This document shows positions 13,325-64,000 of a stretch of DNA of 64,000 nucleotides, piece by piece. The stretch lies in the IMG/VR virus record IMGVR_UViG_3300025133_000028, one strand, 5' to 3'. Each line of letters opens with the position of its first letter. Positions within the stretch are counted from its first letter, which is position 1. The position numbers were made by a program, and so were the translations under genes. The DNA comes from a virus. The notes below the pieces were generated by a model. It was given only the letters and a program-made list of their open reading frames with translations. It was not told the DNA's origin and did no database searches.

Positions 13325-14716
13325 ATGACAATTAAAGACGCAGTAAATACAGCAAACGAAGTATTTGCGTGGTGGAAAACCGTACCTGCCCCACAAAGGG
13401 GTGACTTGATTAGGGAGTTCGGGAATACTTTAAGGAAAAATAAGTCTAAACTTGCGGAAATTATCACGGAAGAGTCTCGCAAACCTATATCGGAAGCTTT
13501 GGGTGAGGTACAGGAAGCTATTGATATGTGTGACTTTGCTTGTGGTTTGAGTAGACAACTGTATGGTCTGACTATGGGAAGTGAACGACCTAACCACAGA
13601 CTACAGGAAATGTGGCACCCGCTAGGACCAGTTGGTGTTATCTCTGCGTTTAATTTTCCTTGTGCTGTTTGGGCATGGAACTTCTGTTTAGCTGTTGTGT
13701 GTGGAAATCCGGTTATCTGGAAACCAAGCGAAAAGACTGAAAAGACTGCGGAATTATGTAAAAAACTATGGAACGATACGGTATTTGACACAGCAGAAAA
13801 TAGAATTGGAGGTTTCAGTCCAGGTGCTGACTTTGATTTGGTACAAATAATCAAAGGAGGACAAGAAGCCGCAGAAGAAATGGCTGACCACCCAGGTATT
13901 AAATTAGTAAGTGCAACAGGCAGTACTAAAATGGGTAAGAACATTGCTGAAAGAGTTGCCAGACGTTTGGGGCGTAGTCTATTAGAACTAGGCGGAAATA
14001 ACGGCGGAATTATTTGTCCTAGTGCAGACCAAGACTTGGCATTACGCGGGGTTGTGTTCTCTGCTGTTGGAACTACCGGCCAAAGATGTACTACTTTACG
14101 TAGGTTATTTGTACATACCGACATCTACGACGAATTCGTAGGTAAGCTTAAAGCCGTATATCATAAACTTGAGCCAGGAAATCCCGCAGAATCTAAAACA
14201 CTGTTTGGACCATTGATTGACGAAGCAGCAGGCGATAAATATATAGACACTATAATTGATTCCAAAAACGTAACATCGAGAGGTATAATTTATGACAATA
14301 TTAATGACAAAATCAAGTACGTACATCCAGCCTTAATAGAATTAGACAAACCTAACGAAGCTTGTAAAAAAGAAGTGTTTGCACCAATATTATATATTTT
14401 TCCTTACAGTAATTTGCGTGACGCTATATCGCTACACAACGATGTACCACAAGGTTTGAGTAGTTGTATATTTACTAGAGATATGCAAGAGGCAGAGTTG
14501 TTTATTGGACCAGAAGGAAGTGATTGCGGAATTGTTAATGTTAACATTGGTCCGAGTGGAGCAGAGATTGGTGGGGCGTTTGGTGGCGAGAAAGACACCG
14601 GAGGAGGGAGAGAAAGCGGAAGTGACGCTTGGAAAAATTACATGCGTAGAACTACCGTTACTATTAATTACGGAAACGACTTACCGTTGGCTCAAGGAGT
14701 ACAGTTTGAATTGTAA
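13325..14716 (+). CDS. Aldehyde dehydrogenase family 7 (antiquitin / piperideine-6-carboxylate dehydrogenase-like)
   Basis: 'GVISAFNFP.AVWAWN', 'LELGGNN' (catalytic Glu), 'GTTGQRCTT' (catalytic Cys), 'GAEIGGAFGGEK.TGGGRESGSDAWK.Y', 'LPLAQGVQF'. Confidence 0.93.
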   Translation: MTIKDAVNTANEVFAWWKTVPAPQRGDLIREFGNTLRKNKSKLAEIITEESRKPISEALGEVQEAIDMCDFACGLSRQLYGLTMGSERPNHRLQEMWHPLGPVGVISAFNFPCAVWAWNFCLAVVCGNPVIWKPSEKTEKTAELCKKLWNDTVFDTAENRIGGFSPGADFDLVQIIKGGQEAAEEMADHPGIKLVSATGSTKMGKNIAERVARRLGRSLLELGGNNGGIICPSADQDLALRGVVFSAVGTTGQRCTTLRRLFVHTDIYDEFVGKLKAVYHKLEPGNPAESKTLFGPLIDEAAGDKYIDTIIDSKNVTSRGIIYDNINDKIKYVHPALIELDKPNEACKKEVFAPILYIFPYSNLRDAISLHNDVPQGLSSCIFTRDMQEAELFIGPEGSDCGIVNVNIGPSGAEIGGAFGGEKDTGGGRESGSDAWKNYMRRTTVTINYGNDLPLAQGVQFEL

Positions 14717-45715: not shown

Positions 45716-47890
45716 CTATTTACACTCTTCTTCGCCTTCGTTTATAAGAGCAAAAATACTACTTTGAATTTGTCTAGATTCGTCCACACTAGGTTTACGC
45801 CCCTGATTTGATATGAATTGTCCCATTAAAACATCTTGTAAACTAGCTATAATGGGGTTATCAACTGGACATTCTTTGCTCAAAAGGCTATACACCAATT
45901 CGGCGGAAACTTCTTGATATGGCTGTAGATAGCACAATATACCAAACTTAATCTTTTCAGATTCAGCAAACTCTGCTTTAGTCAAACTCCTAACATTCTT
46001 TTTGCCATAAGCGTTTAATAAAGCGGGAGTTACAAGTTCTGAAACAGCCTTTTGTGCCTCATTTCCCCATATAAACAAGTCCACAAACGCTTTTGTTCTA
46101 GGTTTAGCTGTTGGTTTAGGCTTGCGTTTTTTGGTTTCTGTCTTATTTTTAGGTCTGCCACCAGAATTGGGGTCTCCCTTTGGTTTTGTTTCTGGTTTGC
46201 CCTTGTTTACCTTAATCTGCATATCTAACTGTTGTTCTAGTCTGGTTTGTTCACCAGTCTTTTTCTCTTCAAGTTGGATACCCAATTCAGACGGAGCTAC
46301 GCCACCACCATTAAGTAAGATTTTCTTGAGTTCTTCAGTATTTTGAGGATTGTGATAAGGACCAGCTTTAAGACTTCTAGTTCCATCAACACGTTCTGTA
46401 TCTTCTTTTTGTTTACGCAAGTTTTCAATCTCTGGATTAAGATTAAACCTAGCAACTACAGACTCTTCACATATAACATCCATACCTAATAGCTGTATAA
46501 GTAAAGCCTTTTCAGCAGCTTCATCTGCTAAGATAATACGGTCATATCGTATAGTAGGAGCATGGTGAAAGCCCATAGCTTTTTGAACTCGCACAACCTC
46601 TTGTTGCCAGAATTCGTTGAGAATAATACGACCATATTCCAATCTCTCGATAAGGGTCTTCAAGGAAATGAAGTTATTAGTATTAACACTCGCATTTGAA
46701 CCAGAACGTAAAGCAGGCGAAATACCCAGTCCATCATAGACAGCATCTAAAGTAGGTTCGTACTTTTGTTTACCTAGGAATTTGTGTACTTCACTACTAG
46801 ATTCCGTAAACTTAAGTTCCGGTCCCCAAACTAAGTCAATAGGTCCACCACCAGCACTATTCGCTAGGATATTACGCAATTTGTTGATATTAGCCTTAGT
46901 AGGTAGAATACTGTTAACACCGTCAAGATGACCCAAACTCCACAGGCGAACCTGAGATATAGCACCGTCCAATGCGGATAAGTCGGCCAATTTCATTTTA
47001 TCCAGCATGATTAGGTCAGACAAAATAGAATAGGTCATTGGATGAGCCCAAGACTGCCAGTCGTCTTTTTTGTAGTGATAAACAGAGATTTGGTCATTAT
47101 CAAGCGGAATCATACGCTTGCCTTTTGAGAGTGCTTCTCTGATGTCTTTCGGTAGGCTTTTTAATAGCTCTTTAGTACCAAAACCTTTATTGCCTAACCT
47201 GTTAACATTATTGAAAGCCATTTTTAGAGCATTGCTAATAAGTAATGCATACTGTGGTTTCCCTGCAAACATAGCAAGTTCACCACCAATAATCTCAATT
47301 GTAGTCGGACTAATAAAAGAGTACTTTAAAGGAATGTAATTTTTCCTTACAGATACTTCTTCAAATTTGATATCATCAGCCGCTCTAGCTCTTTTCATAC
47401 GACTGGCTTGATTTTTAGTAATATGTCCTTCTCTGCGTTTAACGACTACATTTCCCGCACGATATAGCATATTTAGAAAGCGTTCAGAACGTTCCTTTCC
47501 TTTGACTTTTTCAAACCATCGGTTATAAAAATTCTCAACTGACTTATTAGGGTGTTCCAGACGGATTCCCTGACACGCAAAGTCTGCCATAAGGTCAATA
47601 ACATTGCGAATAATACCCACACGGTCATATGATGCCATGCAGGTTTGTATGATTTCTCTATGTTCTGTTGGAATTCTACCGCTTGGACGATAGTATTCGT
47701 AATCTCCGCGATTGTAGTCACTTCTGACCGAAATATTGGTATCTACACCAACAAAAGTACGACCTTCTTGTGTGTGACCAACAGCGTGGTTGTCTTCTAC
47801 ATAATCGTTGTTATTAGCAAAAGCTTGTGCCATGTGTGAGTCAGGGTCTGCGAAGACATACATTTCATCTTGTTTTTTGTTTCTTGCCAC
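45716..47890 (-). CDS. Portal protein
   Basis: 724 aa between terminase and protease; portal-like helical organisation. Confidence 0.78.
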   Translation of the reverse strand: MARNKKQDEMYVFADPDSHMAQAFANNNDYVEDNHAVGHTQEGRTFVGVDTNISVRSDYNRGDYEYYRPSGRIPTEHREIIQTCMASYDRVGIIRNVIDLMADFACQGIRLEHPNKSVENFYNRWFEKVKGKERSERFLNMLYRAGNVVVKRREGHITKNQASRMKRARAADDIKFEEVSVRKNYIPLKYSFISPTTIEIIGGELAMFAGKPQYALLISNALKMAFNNVNRLGNKGFGTKELLKSLPKDIREALSKGKRMIPLDNDQISVYHYKKDDWQSWAHPMTYSILSDLIMLDKMKLADLSALDGAISQVRLWSLGHLDGVNSILPTKANINKLRNILANSAGGGPIDLVWGPELKFTESSSEVHKFLGKQKYEPTLDAVYDGLGISPALRSGSNASVNTNNFISLKTLIERLEYGRIILNEFWQQEVVRVQKAMGFHHAPTIRYDRIILADEAAEKALLIQLLGMDVICEESVVARFNLNPEIENLRKQKEDTERVDGTRSLKAGPYHNPQNTEELKKILLNGGGVAPSELGIQLEEKKTGEQTRLEQQLDMQIKVNKGKPETKPKGDPNSGGRPKNKTETKKRKPKPTAKPRTKAFVDLFIWGNEAQKAVSELVTPALLNAYGKKNVRSLTKAEFAESEKIKFGILCYLQPYQEVSAELVYSLLSKECPVDNPIIASLQDVLMGQFISNQGRKPSVDESRQIQSSIFALINEGEEECK

Positions 47891-58288: not shown

Positions 58289-58463
58289 AATAGGGATGTA
58301 CTTTTTGTGTCTGACTGTTTTGTTTTGTGTGGGTGGCTCATTTGAGATTCCTGTCTTAACCATTTGTGCTATTTTTGGCTTTACTATATACGGTATGTAT
58401 CATGGTACGTGGTGCTTAATTAATATAGTGATTGACTCGCTTATTAAAGGCAGAGAGTCATAG
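58278..58463 (+). CDS. Small membrane protein
   Basis: RBS AGGAGA before ATG 58278; hydrophobic. Confidence 0.5.
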   Translation: MEDKIGMYFLCLTVLFCVGGSFEIPVLTICAIFGFTIYGMYHGTWCLINIVIDSLIKGRES

Positions 58464-58840: not shown

Positions 58841-59698
58841 TTTGGCACGGAATTTGCTACGCAAATAGCATGCCAAATAGCAACTAAATTCTGTCTCAAA
58901 ATGAGACGCTAATTCCCACAATCCGCATAGGGATTCTAGCCTATCGGCGCGGTGCGAATATGCACAATCCCCATAGGGGTTCTATCTTGTGTGCGTATAC
59001 GCACACTCATAACCAGTGAGAATATGCACAATCCCCATGGCAATTCTGGCAGTTGGCGCGTAGCAAATTCCGTGCCAAACTATATGCCACAAACCCTATG
59101 GCAATTGTGATTTAGGCCAAATCGGCCATTTTTGTATCCTCTGTGAGTCTCTGTGCGGCCCGCTAACGAGCGCAACAGGTTAGGGGTATCCTAGGTCAAA
59201 ACGTGTTTTTCCACCCCTATGGGGGGTGTGGTTACCTATCTTACCATACTTGCCTATATTAACAAAAATCTCATTATGAGATTCAGTTTGGCACGATAGT
59301 TGCTTGTGCATATACGCACACTCACAGCACAAAACGCGCACATACGCACCCCCTCTATTGGGGAATTGGAACAAACCCTATGCGGAATATGCGGAATAGG
59401 CATTCGACCACTAGTGTTCATTTGTTCAAATTGTCATTTTGTAAGTGTGCGGCGCGCCGTTTGCTATGCACACTTCAAACGCACACTTCGTTATAACCCT
59501 ATGGTATATATAGACTTAGGGAGTGTCATTTTCGCACACTAGTGTGCATTCCGCAACGTGTTGATACATATAGACTTAGGTCAAATAGGCGTGCATATAC
59601 GCACACTCGGCCCGCTATGTGAGAATGGACCAAATAGCGTAACATGTTGATACATATAGACTTAGGAGAATCCTATTCTGTTTGGCACACGATATGCT
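58841..59698. promoter_or_regulatory. Cluster of six sigma54 (RpoN) -24/-12 elements with enhancer-like palindromes and IHF sites
   Basis: GG-N10-GC boxes: 58843-58858(+) TGGCACGGAATTTGCT, 58860-58875(-) TGGCATGCTATTTGCG, 59062-59077(-) TGGCACGGAATTTGCT, 59289-59304(+) TGGCACGATAGTTGCT, 59450-59465(+) CGGCGCGCCGTTTGCT, 59683-59698(+) TGGCACACGATATGCT. Confidence 0.75.
59554..59652 (-). promoter_or_regulatory. Two consensus IHF sites (WATCAANNNNTTR) inside a direct repeat
   Basis: TATCAACACGTTG (59554-59566, -) and TATCAACATGTTA (59640-59652, -), each overlapping TGTTGATACATATAGACTTAGG. Confidence 0.7.
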
Positions 59699-59708
59699 AC
59701 TTGGTTCT

Positions 59709-59930
59709 AACCGGCGTTGCCCTACGGCGACGAGGGCGGCTAGATACGGGCAGTATCACGCAACACCGCCAATCGCTCCTTGACAATTCGGTAGAACGCT
59801 AGGTGGTGACATCCGTAGAATGGACTGCGGACCTACCATATGCAACGGATTAGACTCTGTGCAGAACGGCCCGTAGGCGTCCTCTGTGGACGCATAGCGG
59901 GCTGTTTAGCGTATGGTCCAGTCCAAACCA
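59709..59930 (+). ncRNA. Structured 5' leader/ncRNA downstream of the last sigma54 box, with boxA-like motif
   Basis: Nested helices 59712-20/59760-68, 59743-47/59753-57, 59821-27/59919-25, 59835-43/59909-17, 59865-73/59898-906, 59877-82/59888-93; CGCTCCTTGACAA at 59774-59786. Confidence 0.6.
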
Positions 59931-59941
59931 AGGAGCATAGC

Positions 59942-60118
59942 ATGGAACCAGTACTAGTAACCCGCGAGCAATACGATTGGTTGGTTCAAAACCATTCTAG
60001 TTGGATGTTACACGATTGGTTAAGATTCAATCGGGAATGGCGCCTGTCGGGAGTAAAGTGTTACGGTTCGTTTTCAATGTTGGTTGAGCTACGATTTAAG
60101 CTTCGCCAGTTTAGTTAA
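59942..60118 (+). CDS. Small putative early protein
   Basis: RBS AAGGAG before ATG 59942; the ORF-track start 59840 lies inside the structured leader. Confidence 0.6.
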   Translation: MEPVLVTREQYDWLVQNHSSWMLHDWLRFNREWRLSGVKCYGSFSMLVELRFKLRQFS

Positions 60119-60203
60119 CCCCAAATTTCCTAAACAGCCTACTTTAACAGAGTAGGTTGATTTGGCAGTTTAGGTAACTTGCACAGTCTACGGAGATTAG
60201 ACA

Positions 60204-60392
60204 ATGCTGGAAAGCTTGCTAAACAGAGTAGTTTGGGACAAATGGGAAGTTTTTGACCCCCAAACTGGTCTACCTATCGTCCGCCTACCCGCCAAACATT
60301 TGGCAGTTTGGGTAGCATGGGCAATGAAGGCAAAATGGACCGTTTGCGGTCAAGGCGTGTTTTTGGCAAAATGGGAAGTTTACACAAGGTGA
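60204..60392 (+). CDS. Small putative early protein
   Basis: Shared leader CTACGGAG..TAG..ATG. Confidence 0.6.
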   Translation: MLESLLNRVVWDKWEVFDPQTGLPIVRLPAKHLAVWVAWAMKAKWTVCGQGVFLAKWEVYTR

Positions 60393-60490
60393 ATTCCCGA
60401 TACCGCTTATCTTGATAAGATAGGCGATTTCGGTAGTTTACGCCATTCTGGCGATTTGAGTAGTTAACACAATTTACGGAGTCTAGTGAA

Positions 60491-60835
60491 ATGACGAAGT
60501 TAGCATCGTTTGCGTCAAGTGCGGACAATTGGGACTATGCACAAGCTGTGAAAACAGCGGAAGCTACGGCTGGCGTTGAAATGACCGATTTAGACTGGTT
60601 TCGCGCGTTCAACGTGGCAGTACCAACGGAGGCGGGTACGCGAGACCTATGGACGCTTAAAAACACAAACAAGCGCAACACCGCCAATTCCGCACAATGC
60701 CCGAAGAAGGAGCGACAACGCCACCACGAAGACCATTATGGTAAAATGGGTATTGTGGGCAAACCAGGAAGCAAGGAGAGAATAGAGGCATTGCGGCAAG
60801 CTGTGGAAGCTGGAGAGTTTGGGCAAGATGAGTAA
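60491..60835 (+). CDS. Putative early protein
   Basis: Shared leader TACGGAGTCTAGTGAAATG. Confidence 0.7.
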   Translation: MTKLASFASSADNWDYAQAVKTAEATAGVEMTDLDWFRAFNVAVPTEAGTRDLWTLKNTNKRNTANSAQCPKKERQRHHEDHYGKMGIVGKPGSKERIEALRQAVEAGEFGQDE

Positions 60836-60839
60836 CCTG

Positions 60840-61306
60840 AGTAAGTGAAATAGTCTAGTCCGCCTAGGGTAGATGGGCGGACTAGCTAATTTCGGCTATT
60901 CTGGTCGATTAGGTAAGTTACACTTTCTACGGAGTCTAGTGAAATGGCACAAGATACATTGAATATGGGAACTAGTAATGTTTTGGCAAACGGAGCAGAA
61001 ATTGTGCAACGTTGGCAAGTTGGGCAAGTTGGGAAAGATACAACCGAAACTCCCGATTGGATAGTTTTGGCAAAGTGGGGAAACGAATATGCGACATGGC
61101 GAGTTTCGCACGATGGCCATGCATATTGGGGACACTACTTCAACACCTATTCCGCCGCAATGACAGACTACCAAAAACGAGTACGTTGGGTGTTTGGATA
61201 GAATGAGTAAAATAGTCTAATCCGCCTAGTTAAGCTGGGCGGATTGGATAATTTTGGCCATTCTGGCTAAATAGGCGAGTTACACTTTCTACGGAGTTTA
61301 GGGACT
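60840..61306 (+). repeat. ~100-bp repeated intergenic element (hairpin plus leader) flanking ORF 60944-61201
   Basis: 60840-60943 and 61205-61306 align and show a compensatory G-C/A-T change in the hairpin stem. Confidence 0.8.
60944..61201 (+). CDS. Putative early protein
   Basis: Shared leader; 'EYATW....GHAYWGHYF' motif. Confidence 0.7.
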   Translation: MAQDTLNMGTSNVLANGAEIVQRWQVGQVGKDTTETPDWIVLAKWGNEYATWRVSHDGHAYWGHYFNTYSAAMTDYQKRVRWVFG

Positions 61307-61558
61307 ATGATGCGAATAGAAGATTTGCGCAGGGCTGTCAAGATGGTTGAAATGGGCGAATTGGAAGACATTGCGGTATGGGAAGAAGCTGCGATATTTG
61401 ACGGGTTTGGGCTGGAAAGCTTCAAGCCGATAGTTTGCACAATTCAGCAACTAGCATGCCTAGTATTGTGGCAAGCTAGAACATTTGCGGGGACTTGGGA
61501 CAATGAGGCAATTGCGGAAATCAGGGCAAACAGGCGGAAGTTTACAGTTGTCAATTGA
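61307..61558 (+). CDS. Putative early protein
   Basis: Shared leader GTTACACTTTCTACGGAGT. Confidence 0.7.
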   Translation: MMRIEDLRRAVKMVEMGELEDIAVWEEAAIFDGFGLESFKPIVCTIQQLACLVLWQARTFAGTWDNEAIAEIRANRRKFTVVN

Positions 61559-61682
61559 CAACTGGTAAGATAGGCAAAGCAGGTAAAATGGCATAGCTTG
61601 GCATAATAGCTAAGCTAGGCCGTTTTGGTTGTTTATGTAATCCTGCAAAAGCAGGTAGTCTAATCAAGATAGGGAGTTTGGG

Positions 61683-62039
61683 ATGATTATTCAAATTAGC
61701 CTATGTGGGTCAATTATGGTCGATGTGGAGAATTGGGCACCTAGCACGTTAGAAGATTTTCTCGACTGCGCTAAAAGCGGCAATAATGACGAGGCTTGTG
61801 CGTTCTTCTTAAGTACTTATCAACCGGATTTTACGATAATCCGGCAAGATAGGCAAACTGGAGAATTTGCGGAAGTTACGGCAACTGAAGAAGAAATGGC
61901 GTTTGTGGTTCAAACTTCTGGTTGTTCGCCAGTTGACGAAGTAGAGAATTTGCCGTTGTATATTATTTGGTTTGCGGCGCATAATTTGCGGGAAGAAATA
62001 AAGATGGCGTTTGAAGAACGGAAATGGAGTCCGTGTTAA
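61683..62039 (+). CDS. Putative early acidic protein
   Basis: Leader CAAGATAGGGAGTTTGGGATG. Confidence 0.7.
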   Translation: MIIQISLCGSIMVDVENWAPSTLEDFLDCAKSGNNDEACAFFLSTYQPDFTIIRQDRQTGEFAEVTATEEEMAFVVQTSGCSPVDEVENLPLYIIWFAAHNLREEIKMAFEERKWSPC

Positions 62040-62153
62040 GATAGGCAATCTGCGTACTCTCGACAATCCAGGTAATCTAGGTAATCTAGGTAATCTGGAT
62101 AGTCCAGCGTATTTAGATGTTTTGAGTAATCCTCACAAGATAGGGAGTTTGGG

Positions 62154-62420
62154 ATGACTGCTGTAAATAGGCACGTTGAGTTGATTGCAATAGTTGGGCG
62201 GCATGGGGACACTAAGCGGGTTAATGCCGTTTTTCACGCTATGGTTAATGAATCACAAGCCGACTATGCGTCGCGTTGGCGGGATGTCATTAGCTACGTG
62301 TCGGGCACATTGCACGACATAAAGCGTATTCAAGCGGTTCAGTTGTGGCTCTTATGTACGGGTTACAAGTTGTCAAATTGTATCATCAAATCGGTAACAA
62401 TGGGCAAGCCGGTAAGCTAG
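62154..62420 (+). CDS. Putative early protein
   Basis: Identical leader CAAGATAGGGAGTTTGGGATG. Confidence 0.65.
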   Translation: MTAVNRHVELIAIVGRHGDTKRVNAVFHAMVNESQADYASRWRDVISYVSGTLHDIKRIQAVQLWLLCTGYKLSNCIIKSVTMGKPVS

Positions 62421-62511
62421 GCAATCTGCGTACTCTAGACATCCCAGCCCGATTAGGCGGGCTGGGTAATCTGTGGTATTTGGGTAATCCTCACAAGATA
62501 GGGAGTTTGGG

Positions 62512-62664
62512 ATGTCTGTTACAAATAGGGATTTTGGGAAACATACGTATTCTGTATATGATTTGGCAATTTACGAAAAATGGAAGGAAAAATCTCTGTT
62601 AAGATTGACTGAATTTCTACTATATGCCAATGTTCTACGAGGTTTGATTAGAACAGTGGACTGA
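62512..62664 (+). CDS. Small putative early protein (50 aa, not in ORF track)
   Basis: Third copy of the CAAGATAGGGAGTTTGGGATG leader; open frame MSVTNRDFGK...IRTVD*. Confidence 0.6.
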   Translation: MSVTNRDFGKHTYSVYDLAIYEKWKEKSLLRLTEFLLYANVLRGLIRTVD

Positions 62665-62706
62665 GTAACCTAGTCTAATCCGTTGCCGAAAATCCAAAGA
62701 TAATAC

Positions 62707-62777: not shown

Positions 62778-62878
62778 TGCTGGCGTGAGCTACGGCCCTT
62801 TGTGCGTCGATTTGCGGGACGTTACGCTAACGCGGACAATAGTAGGTCAAAGCACAAAAATGGCTTTAGACGCCAATT

Positions 62879-62936
62879 CTGACAGCCTAGCGGGTAATCC
62901 TGACAGCCTAGCGGGTAATCCTGACAGCCTAGCGGG
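62879..62936 (+). repeat. 21-bp tandem repeat CTGACAGCCTAGCGGGTAATC x2.8
   Basis: Units start at 62879, 62900 and 62921. Confidence 0.9.
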
Positions 62937-63222
62937 CTAGGGTAATACTTCAAGGAAAAAATATAATATCGGGATTTATCGGCACTTTATATTTGACAAC
63001 CGGAAATTCTATGGTAGGTAATCCTCTTATGGTAGTCTGGGCAATATGCACAATATAAGTATTTGACGAAGTATAGGTAAGTAATCCCGCCTTTTGACGA
63101 AGTCAAGGGTAATCCGTGAATAAATTGCCAAGTAATAATATATTTTTCCTTGAAGATAATCCGTTGCAATGCCGATAATGTATGGTAAGCTAGGGCATAC
63201 AACAAAACAAAAGGAGAGTACG

Positions 63223-63393
63223 ATGGAATTCAGAGTTATCAAAACGTGGGCATTTGGCCAAATTTTGGATTTTGTTGGCACTTTTGCTGAGTGTCAGGCG
63301 TATTGTCGTGGGTATTGTGGTTCAATGTATACGTATAGCTTATCCATTGTGGATAATAGCGGCACAGTTTGTGATGTTTGGCAAGATAGGTAA
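63223..63393 (+). CDS. Small putative early protein
   Basis: RBS AAGGAG before ATG 63223. Confidence 0.6.
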   Translation: MEFRVIKTWAFGQILDFVGTFAECQAYCRGYCGSMYTYSLSIVDNSGTVCDVWQDR

Positions 63394-63550
63394 TCTAAGC
63401 AAGGAGCTAGGCTATGGTCATTTTGCGGGAGTGGATAATCGAGAGACGGCAGATAACCACAACAAAGGAAGAAATTACGGAATTTTACCTTGACGTGGAT
63501 ATCGACGTGATTTTGGAAATGTGGGCGATTTTGGGAATCTAGGGTGAATT

Positions 63551-63763
63551 ATGAAAAATCAAGCCAATTTGACGATTTTAGACGTAGACAATGCTTTCCG
63601 CCTACTAGAGGAGCGAATTGCAAAACCAACTACTCGCGAAGAAATCTATAAAATCCGCGAAGAATTGGATTTTTGGTACGATACGTGCTATACGGAGTCT
63701 GGTTCAATTGCCACAAAGACTATGGATGATACGCAATTTGATTTGGCTTACGAAAAAGAATAG
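63551..63763 (+). CDS. Small putative early protein
   Basis: 70-aa ORF, same orientation and spacing as its neighbours. Confidence 0.55.
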   Translation: MKNQANLTILDVDNAFRLLEERIAKPTTREEIYKIREELDFWYDTCYTESGSIATKTMDDTQFDLAYEKE

Positions 63764-63840
63764 GTAAGATAGGCAAGCTGGGTAATATATCGGCAAATTT
63801 ATTTGCAGGCTAAAATTGGGAAATAATCTCAAGTTTAGCC

Positions 63841-63913
63841 TTGCAATAGCCGAAAACTAGGATATAATAAGAATATAGCCGTGGGGGAGGCTGCGCGGAT
63901 TTATTTGGCTGTG
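63841..63913 (+). promoter_or_regulatory. Sigma70-like promoter plus conserved 40-nt element (copy 2)
   Basis: TTGCAA-N16-TATAAT, then TATAGCCGTGGGGGAGGCTGCGCGGATTTATTTGGCTGTG. Confidence 0.6.
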
Positions 63914-64000
63914 ACAGCCGCCATACCACAGCGAGAAAAACACGAAGCTACTATAATAAGAATAACATAGATTTAGAAGAAGTCAAGCACTATTATCGGA

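Follow-up and report, generated by a model that had tools for sequence, protein, structure and literature searches.

The leader RNA of the N gene of phage lambda is reportedly activated by RNase III, as Wilson and co-workers are said to have described in 1997 and 2002. RNase III sites are also found in the early mRNA of phage T7, where long imperfect hairpins devoid of U-tracts, such as R0.3, lie between or ahead of small early genes; a distant upstream strand is not known to pair with a Shine-Dalgarno (SD) sequence at these sites. Another kind of control involves boxA-type motifs. NusB-NusE recognise 8 nt of boxA, of which G2, C5, a pyrimidine at position 6 and U8 matter, while C6U and G9A have been argued to be tolerated, and the crystallised Aquifex rrn boxA reads GGCUCCUUGGCA (PMC3177189). 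The boxA consensus has been given as GYTCTTTAANA, and repression of suhB is exerted via Nus factors bound 6 nt from its SD sequence (PMC5725501). Here, we describe a leader of ~230 nt ahead of the early genes of an uncultured marine phage. Its boxA-like motif is perfectly complementary to the ribosome-binding site of ORF1, the first of these genes, and for this reason the leader resembles a gate for translation more than a proven antiterminator.

The window, a stretch of 64,000 nt, takes in the final 62.9 kb of an IMG/VR phage record of 163.6 kb and 1.1 kb past its end. The record ends within three copies of a 21-nt tandem repeat (62875-62937), at which it was probably broken, and the 1,085 nt beyond it (62916-64000) resemble the record start just in short promoter-like cassettes. 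The GC content of the genome is 35%, against 42-45% between 58 and 64 kb of the window. Virion genes occupy the minus strand up to ~54.8 kb; genes for a methyltransferase and a metallophosphoesterase and two small genes follow on the plus strand, ending at 58463. After ~1.5 kb of non-coding DNA rich in repeats and palindromes, the early array begins at 59942 on the plus strand as a series of small ORFs with hairpins between them. The portal-like protein encoded at 45716-47890 (minus strand) is 19% identical to that of the nearest cultured phage and has 366 IMG/VR relatives at 42-48% identity, whose records include ones of 143-154 kb. These figures point to a large marine phage family without a cultured member. 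At 13325-14716 lies an aldehyde dehydrogenase-like gene of 463 aa that is probably an auxiliary metabolic gene; copies of it occur in a 636-kb record of an uncultured phage and in an IMG/VR contig of 35 kb, at 52% and 57% identity, respectively.

ORF1 (59942-60118, plus strand) encodes 58 aa and has a consensus SD, AAGGAG (59930-59935), but this ribosome-binding site is masked in the predicted fold. The octamer GCUCCUUG (59775-59782), which is the core of the boxA-like element CGCUCCUUGACAA (59774-59786, plus strand), is the exact complement of CAAGGAGC (59929-59936, plus strand), in which the SD is contained. The two strands form a helix, termed P1, with the boxA-like core as its 5', anti-SD strand, and this helix encloses a variable stem and two hairpins, A and B. 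The first-pass annotation overlooked it because the interval quoted there ended at 59930. In all collections searched, the leader occurred as two alleles, that of the window (W), which at least 10 contigs carry in identical form, and L6, which is ~85% identical to W. Whereas P1 in W consists of eight perfect Watson-Crick pairs, a C-to-U change in L6 (GCUCUUUG) introduces one G.U among the eight, and a ninth pair, U-A, is gained.

The folds considered here are equilibrium folds, in which co-transcriptional folding and ribosome competition are ignored. P1 had a pair probability of 0.9-1.0 in 15 of the 16 5'/3' contexts and of 0.52 in the other one, with 0.93-1.0 in all eight contexts of W; since 15 of the 16 end combinations agree, P1 is independent of the transcript start. 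The probability that the SD is unpaired was 0.002 in W and 0.003 in L6, compared with 0.52 and 0.41 in dinucleotide shuffles, and the SD was as hidden in none of the 150 leader shuffles made from each allele. Among the 10 early ORFs with a recognisable SD, ORF1 alone was fully masked, the others having values of 0.2-0.97. When the anti-SD strand was omitted from the fold, the SD of ORF1 opened (0.62). The cost of opening the ribosome-binding site amounted to 7.5 kcal/mol in W (ensemble; 6.5 for the minimum free energy (MFE) fold) and to 8.8 kcal/mol in L6. SD-sequestering leaders are recognised by a complementary anti-SD strand, a helix favoured in the ensemble and its conservation in relatives, and this leader displays all of them.

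The strong folding that the first-pass annotation had noticed was borne out. On the plus strand, the 222-nt stretch folded with an MFE of -92.4 kcal/mol (z -3.5), equalled by one of 200 shuffles, whereas the minus strand reached a z of -1.9. When the 163.6-kb genome was scanned for GC-corrected folding energy in 130-nt windows on both strands, the leader core (window at 59785) ranked fifth among 8,178 (z -4.2), and the remaining top-ranked windows all lay in the early array on its plus (sense) strand. W and L6, folded independently, gave one shared architecture between 59797 and 59936, and RNAalifold recovered P1, hairpin A and hairpin B. The junction at 59787-59797 (plus strand), which holds a trivial 3-bp hairpin in W, carries a 32-nt insertion in L6. 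The insertion folds alone into its own hairpin inside P1, which fits a modular junction with a variable peripheral stem. Hairpin A (59798-59843, plus strand), seen in both MFE and consensus folds, is composed of an inner stem (59812-59818/59825-59831) with the loop AAUGGA, an outer helix (59803-59808/59834-59839) and closing GC/GC pairs; its loop and 3' arm are highly conserved, and U59812-A59831 of W is C-G in L6. A linker of 3 nt, AAC, separates it from hairpin B (59847-59924, plus strand), which has ~31 bp and the apical loop UCUGU, with 25 pairs below a single internal loop, broken by 1x1 mismatches only, and six apical pairs. With about two turns of near-continuous double-stranded RNA in its predicted fold, hairpin B is a candidate substrate of the RNase III type. 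The sequence CGGATTAGACT in its 5' arm (59846-59856) has its reverse complement in four array hairpins, at 60853-60862, 61215-61224, 61657-61666 and 62672-62686, with an exact inverted match of 15 nt between 59842-59856 and 62672-62686; by its recurrence, it may represent a shared duplex recognition site.

The region 5' of P1 varies more. One or more hairpins of domain 1 (59712-59736, plus strand) have two competing folds in W and are non-homologous in L6, where another hairpin stands. Domain 1b (59735-59769, plus strand) was found in the independent MFE folds of both alleles and reads GGCG-GC-UA, the GAUAC/GUAUC hairpin, and AC-GC-AACAC-CGCC in W; L6 keeps the frame GGCG-GC...GC-CGCC around a wholly different inner hairpin (GGUUGU.../...ACAACC). 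All motifs quoted in the first-pass annotation are present where it placed them, and several of its helices have to be redrawn. The GAUAC/GUAUC hairpin is well supported in W (pair probability 0.99), and its position, if not its inner sequence, is kept in L6. The nested stem proposed for domain 2 holds for its AACGGCCCG/CGGGCUGUU core and for GCGUCC/GGACGC, both kept in L6, but not for UGGACUG/CAGUCCA, whose pair probability is at most 0.01 and which is not conserved, nor for ACCAUAUGC/GCGUAUGGU, which has a probability of 0.0 and lacks its 3' arm in L6. The three-way junction closed by CGGCGUUGC/GCAACACCG likewise fell away (pair probability at most 0.03, not conserved). The values for these three rejected helices come from folds that take in the ribosome-binding site; in W, the helices return only as the best fold with this site forced open. 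The alternative pairing AUCCGU/ACGGAU, suggested as a switch or pseudoknot, has a probability near 0 and is weakened in L6, where the U-to-C change is compensated within hairpin A instead.

To what extent the shared fold reflects selection was judged from the two alleles. On a MAFFT alignment, the 46 pairs of domain 2 gave 95.7% paired cells. Between W and L6, pairing survived the substitution of both partners in four of them (59812/59831, 59861/59910, 59862/59909 and 59867/59904) and of a single partner in five; another four were broken in L6. The covariation among homologues that the first-pass annotation had called for can be read from these two alleles only, so that the four double-compensatory pairs speak for the structure without statistical power, and the covariation values, matched by 32 of 500 shuffles, carry no formal power with two sequences. 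Because covariation is powerless in this setting, we added a mutation test, in which each allele was mutated at random with as many transitions, transversions and indels as separate the two. The true partner alleles folded at -65.3 and -63.0 kcal/mol, compared with means of -42.8 and -44.9 kcal/mol (sd ~6) for the mutants, a mean loss of ~20 kcal/mol, and mutants as stable as the true partner numbered three of 500 and none of 500, respectively. At least six G.U pairs are conserved and a covariance model scored 160.6 bits on the plus strand against 29.9 bits on the minus strand, which argues for an RNA of the plus strand. Sequence conservation in domain 2 was 88% in the 5' half and 75% in the 3' half. 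As judged by these folding models, the leader is a real, conserved, strand-specific, structured and non-coding element.

Coding explanations of the conservation fared less well. An upstream extension of ORF1 from the in-frame ATG at 59840 finds no support, as the codon is AGG in L6 and no in-frame upstream start exists there. All of the 23 clusters of distant ORF1 homologues align from residue 1 of the 58-aa form, so the extension, whose translation and conservation would have spoken against a leader RNA, is not conserved at the protein level. We also considered a 36-aa ORF on the minus strand (59833-59943), overlapping hairpin B and the ORF1 start and open in both alleles. It has 61% amino acid against ~85% nucleotide identity, a frameshifted middle and no SD, seems to evolve neutrally, was rejected as a gene and is probably a chance ORF in GC-rich sequence. 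ORF1 itself differs between W and L6 at 16 nt, mainly at third codon positions, resulting in four amino acid changes, a pattern by which it is under purifying selection. Its distant homologues, at 35-54% identity, are all viral hypothetical proteins and lie in tight operons without the leader. No close relative of ORF1 was found in IMG/VR, its 90% cluster has three members, and Pfam and PHROG returned no family match for ORF1 or for its neighbours.

The alleles are known from contigs L007-L013 and L016, identical to W, and L014 and L015, which differ from it only by the loss of one upstream 86-bp repeat; L6 is represented by L006, L026 and L027, with identical leaders. W and L6 are 95% identical up to 59477 and ~85% identical from 59798 on, and in between ~320 nt of W (59478-59797) are swapped for ~385 nt of L6 (L006 3783-4166), which amounts to an exchange of the promoter-proximal leader module. 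A motif of the TAGACTTA type occurs in three direct copies at 59492-59666 in W and in two inverted copies (AAGTCTAG) in L6. In one recombinant metagenome contig, position 60493 is joined to the sequence of ~60948, deleting one ORF cassette. Judging from this junction and from the 86-bp repeat missing in L014 and L015 (59552-59666), natural recombinants between repeated cassette leaders occur.

Searches for further homologues returned few sequences. One metagenome scan added L026 and L027, which have the same leader as L006; four low-share DNA sequencing runs contained no leader variants, and viral contigs scanned for exact and IUPAC patterns of two leader segments contained only chance matches in unrelated coding DNA. 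A covariance model search found no further copy of the leader, neither elsewhere in the phage genome nor among five IMG/VR records related by their portal. For the 112-aa upstream protein, no homologue was found beyond its own cluster, and the next relatives of the metallophosphoesterase are at most 41% identical, on contigs (L030, L031 and L033) without the leader. As the first-pass annotation had supposed, the leader matches no known RNA family: Rfam gave no match at the gathering threshold in the 64-kb window, and a search of 4,227 families with both alleles at E up to 10 gave unrelated matches at chance level, none of them on the plus strand of the leader.

The swapped module also bears on the promoter. 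A sigma54-like -24/-12 box, TGGCAC-N5-ATGCT (59683-59698, plus strand), with a predicted start at ~59709, lies in this module of W together with the 5' hairpin of domain 1, and both are missing from L6. The box nearest the leader is absent from L006, L026 and L027, and the next one upstream is degenerate in L6, for which reason the start at 59709 is a prediction for allele W only. The sigma54 start site assigned to the beginning of the leader thus has its box in W and is not conserved in L6. A regular-expression scan of the 163.6-kb genome gave five sigma54-like boxes, four of them inside 58843-59698, and this clustering of TGGCAC-N5-TTGC boxes (four of five within 860 bp) is, by position, clearly non-random. 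We found neither a sigma54 activator nor an RpoN domain encoded by the phage. In the portal-related phage IMGVR_UViG_3300030330_004701, two such boxes, at a distance of 234 nt and both on the same strand, head a similar array of small ORFs (L117; G002:C1:12541-12789, minus strand). A sigma70 promoter from the TTGACA at 59780 was considered and rejected, as no -10 element follows at 16-18 nt and the spacing is not kept in L6.

With moderate confidence, we regard the conserved part of ~200 nt (59735-59936) of the leader as an SD-sequestering cis-regulatory 5' UTR, as suggested by the folding models. In the ground state, P1 would pair the anti-SD GCUCCUUG with the SD of ORF1 and hide the ribosome-binding site, closing a multi-helix domain of variable stem, hairpin A, linker AAC and long hairpin B. 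Translation of ORF1 would then require the opening or removal of P1. Among possible triggers, we rank endonucleolytic processing of hairpin B highest, by an activity of the RNase III type, for which the lambda N leader and T7 R0.3 offer precedents, followed by a protein or ligand acting on the conserved hairpin A or the junction, and then by temperature. If the leader is transcribed as predicted, translation-transcription coupling could extend the effect of such a trigger to polarity over the array.

The boxA-like motif allows another reading. The first-pass annotation had likened the linker at 59774-59788 to boxA and proposed for the leader a processive antiterminator of the Nus/boxA or put type that lets RNA polymerase read through the array, or else a new class of non-coding RNA. 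The motif is indeed present and conserved in L6, and a Nus/boxA function is conceivable, both alleles having an intact 8-nt core (CGCUCCUU in W and UGCUCUUU in L6). CGCUCCUUGACA of W and UGCUCUUUGACA of L6 keep G2, C5, the pyrimidine at position 6 and U8, differing precisely at position 6. Positions 2-8 of W, GCUCCUU, are identical to those of Aquifex GGCUCCUUGGCA. The first eight positions of L6 are what we take to be the E. coli rrn boxA core, and L6 shares 12 of the 13 positions of UGCUCUUUAACAA, presumably the E. coli rrn boxA. A genuine boxA would have NusB/NusE (S10) bind 59774-59786 and make RNA polymerase Rho-resistant, as in rrn or lambda, through leader and array. The tail ACAA after the anti-SD strand, kept in both alleles and not accounted for by pairing, would fit such a role, as would the C6/U6 swap between the alleles, which is argued to be tolerated (PMC3177189), and lambda nutL-N likewise has a boxA ~200 nt before the first early gene with structured RNA between (PMC5725501). 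This sole difference in P1 fits the boxA tolerance as well as the pairing. However, complementarity to the SD region accounts for all 8 nt, even for two flanking bases that form G-C pairs outside the SD. The frequency of core matches is that of chance, with six observed against 5.1 expected for the 9-mer class and three against 1.75 for the 11-mer class in the genome, and 32 against 28.6 for the boxA-like core in the window; the count expected in a 220-nt leader is only ~0.03, yet SD complementarity demands the same bases. At equilibrium, the core is not single-stranded but paired with the SD at a probability of ~1. Moreover, ORF1 has no arginine-rich N-terminal motif like that of N, and an intrinsic-terminator scan found no terminator-like site on the plus strand of the early array in the window, while L6 has one (L006 4787-4822) at an overall frequency equal to chance; a read-through role would need to counter Rho. 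The antiterminator is thus unsupported as it was put forward, and the linker is better explained as the anti-SD strand, although we keep a genuine boxA in mind as an unlikely alternative. The two roles could coexist, since the motif would be free for ~150 nt of synthesis before the SD emerges. If Nus factors captured the nascent motif, no SD pairing would take place, ORF1 would be translated and the array Rho-protected; with unmodified complexes, P1 would form, ORF1 would be silent and Rho could abort the array. Early-gene translation would thereby be tied directly to the antitermination state of the polymerase. Such a dual-use switch, or else a novel class of phage riboswitches whose aptamer would be the P1-closed junction together with its conserved hairpin A, is a speculative proposal that we think improbable.

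Other explanations dispense with translational control. The leader could be a processing or stability element only, with hairpin B as an RNase III-type site or 5' stabiliser and the SD pairing as a by-product. A strong hairpin lacking a U-tract stands in every intergenic spacer of the array (60119-62514), the array contains the genome's most structured windows (61145-61585, plus strand, z down to -5.7), hairpin B is a near-continuous helix, and the duplex motif GGAUUAGACU/AGUCUAAUCC is repeated in the leader and in four array hairpins. Yet the masking of the SD goes far beyond chance in both alleles and is peculiar to ORF1, and domain 2 shows more sequence conservation in its 5' half, relative to its 3' half, than a plain stem needs, so we judge processing alone to be rather unlikely. 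The neighbouring hairpins A and B, only 3 nt apart in cis near the start of the early operon, and the conservation in hairpin A also recall the put RNAs of phage HK022; the two stem-loops would bind RNA polymerase directly and confer termination resistance without protein factors. The likeness lies in the two-hairpin arrangement and is superficial, judged without sequence comparison. The put stem-loops are far smaller, ~70 nt in total, and the array in the window shows no terminators that would need read-through, which leaves this reading with hardly any probability. Finally, the segment adjoins the 1.5 kb of non-coding repeats and palindromes, and a TAGACT-type motif is repeated at the DNA level, as might be expected if there were no functional RNA and the stretch were untranscribed control DNA, such as operators or an origin, or folded by chance, being richer in GC. 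A strand-specific fold with conserved G.U pairs, whose stability is kept despite ~15% divergence and which lies directly 5' of ORF1, a gene with a consensus SD that is under purifying selection, makes this very unlikely. The SD-sequestering 5' UTR remains the reading we prefer.

Gene control in very large uncultured marine phage families is almost unknown. A conserved RNA that follows sigma54-like promoters and keeps the ribosome-binding site of the leading early gene masked would represent a concrete regulatory element that is cheaply testable. The locus also illustrates that a sequence resembling boxA may turn out to be an anti-SD strand. Given the inherent similarity of boxA and anti-SD sequences, motif-based annotation of Nus targets calls for caution.

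Compared with known systems, the hairpins of the leader and array are similarly long and imperfect and without U-tracts as the RNase III sites of T7, the cleavage being a prediction here. Translational riboswitches and RNA thermometers resemble the leader in having a P1-type helix that closes a multi-helix junction with the SD as its 3' strand, and variable peripheral stems comparable to the L6 insertion are found among them, too; the leader differs from them in matching none of the 4,227 Rfam families, in having no temperature-sensitive motif and in being known from two alleles only. With the E. coli suhB 5' UTR, it shares a boxA-type motif in the 5' UTR, lowered translation initiation and possible Rho polarity (PMC5725501), the latter two being predicted here, but in place of bound Nus factors we predict a direct RNA-RNA helix across ~150 nt. 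By analogy, the closest counterpart is the lambda pL N-leader. The leader described here has no boxB/N pair, so that it does not qualify as a lambda-type nut site, its boxA-like motif itself pairs with the SD, its promoter is sigma54-like rather than sigma70, and there is no sequence similarity between the two. Nevertheless, both are untranslated RNAs of ~200-230 nt before the first early gene with a boxA-type motif in the 5' third, and in both, structured RNA extends from boxA to the SD, limiting the translation of N in lambda (PMC5725501) and, as predicted, that of ORF1 in this phage.
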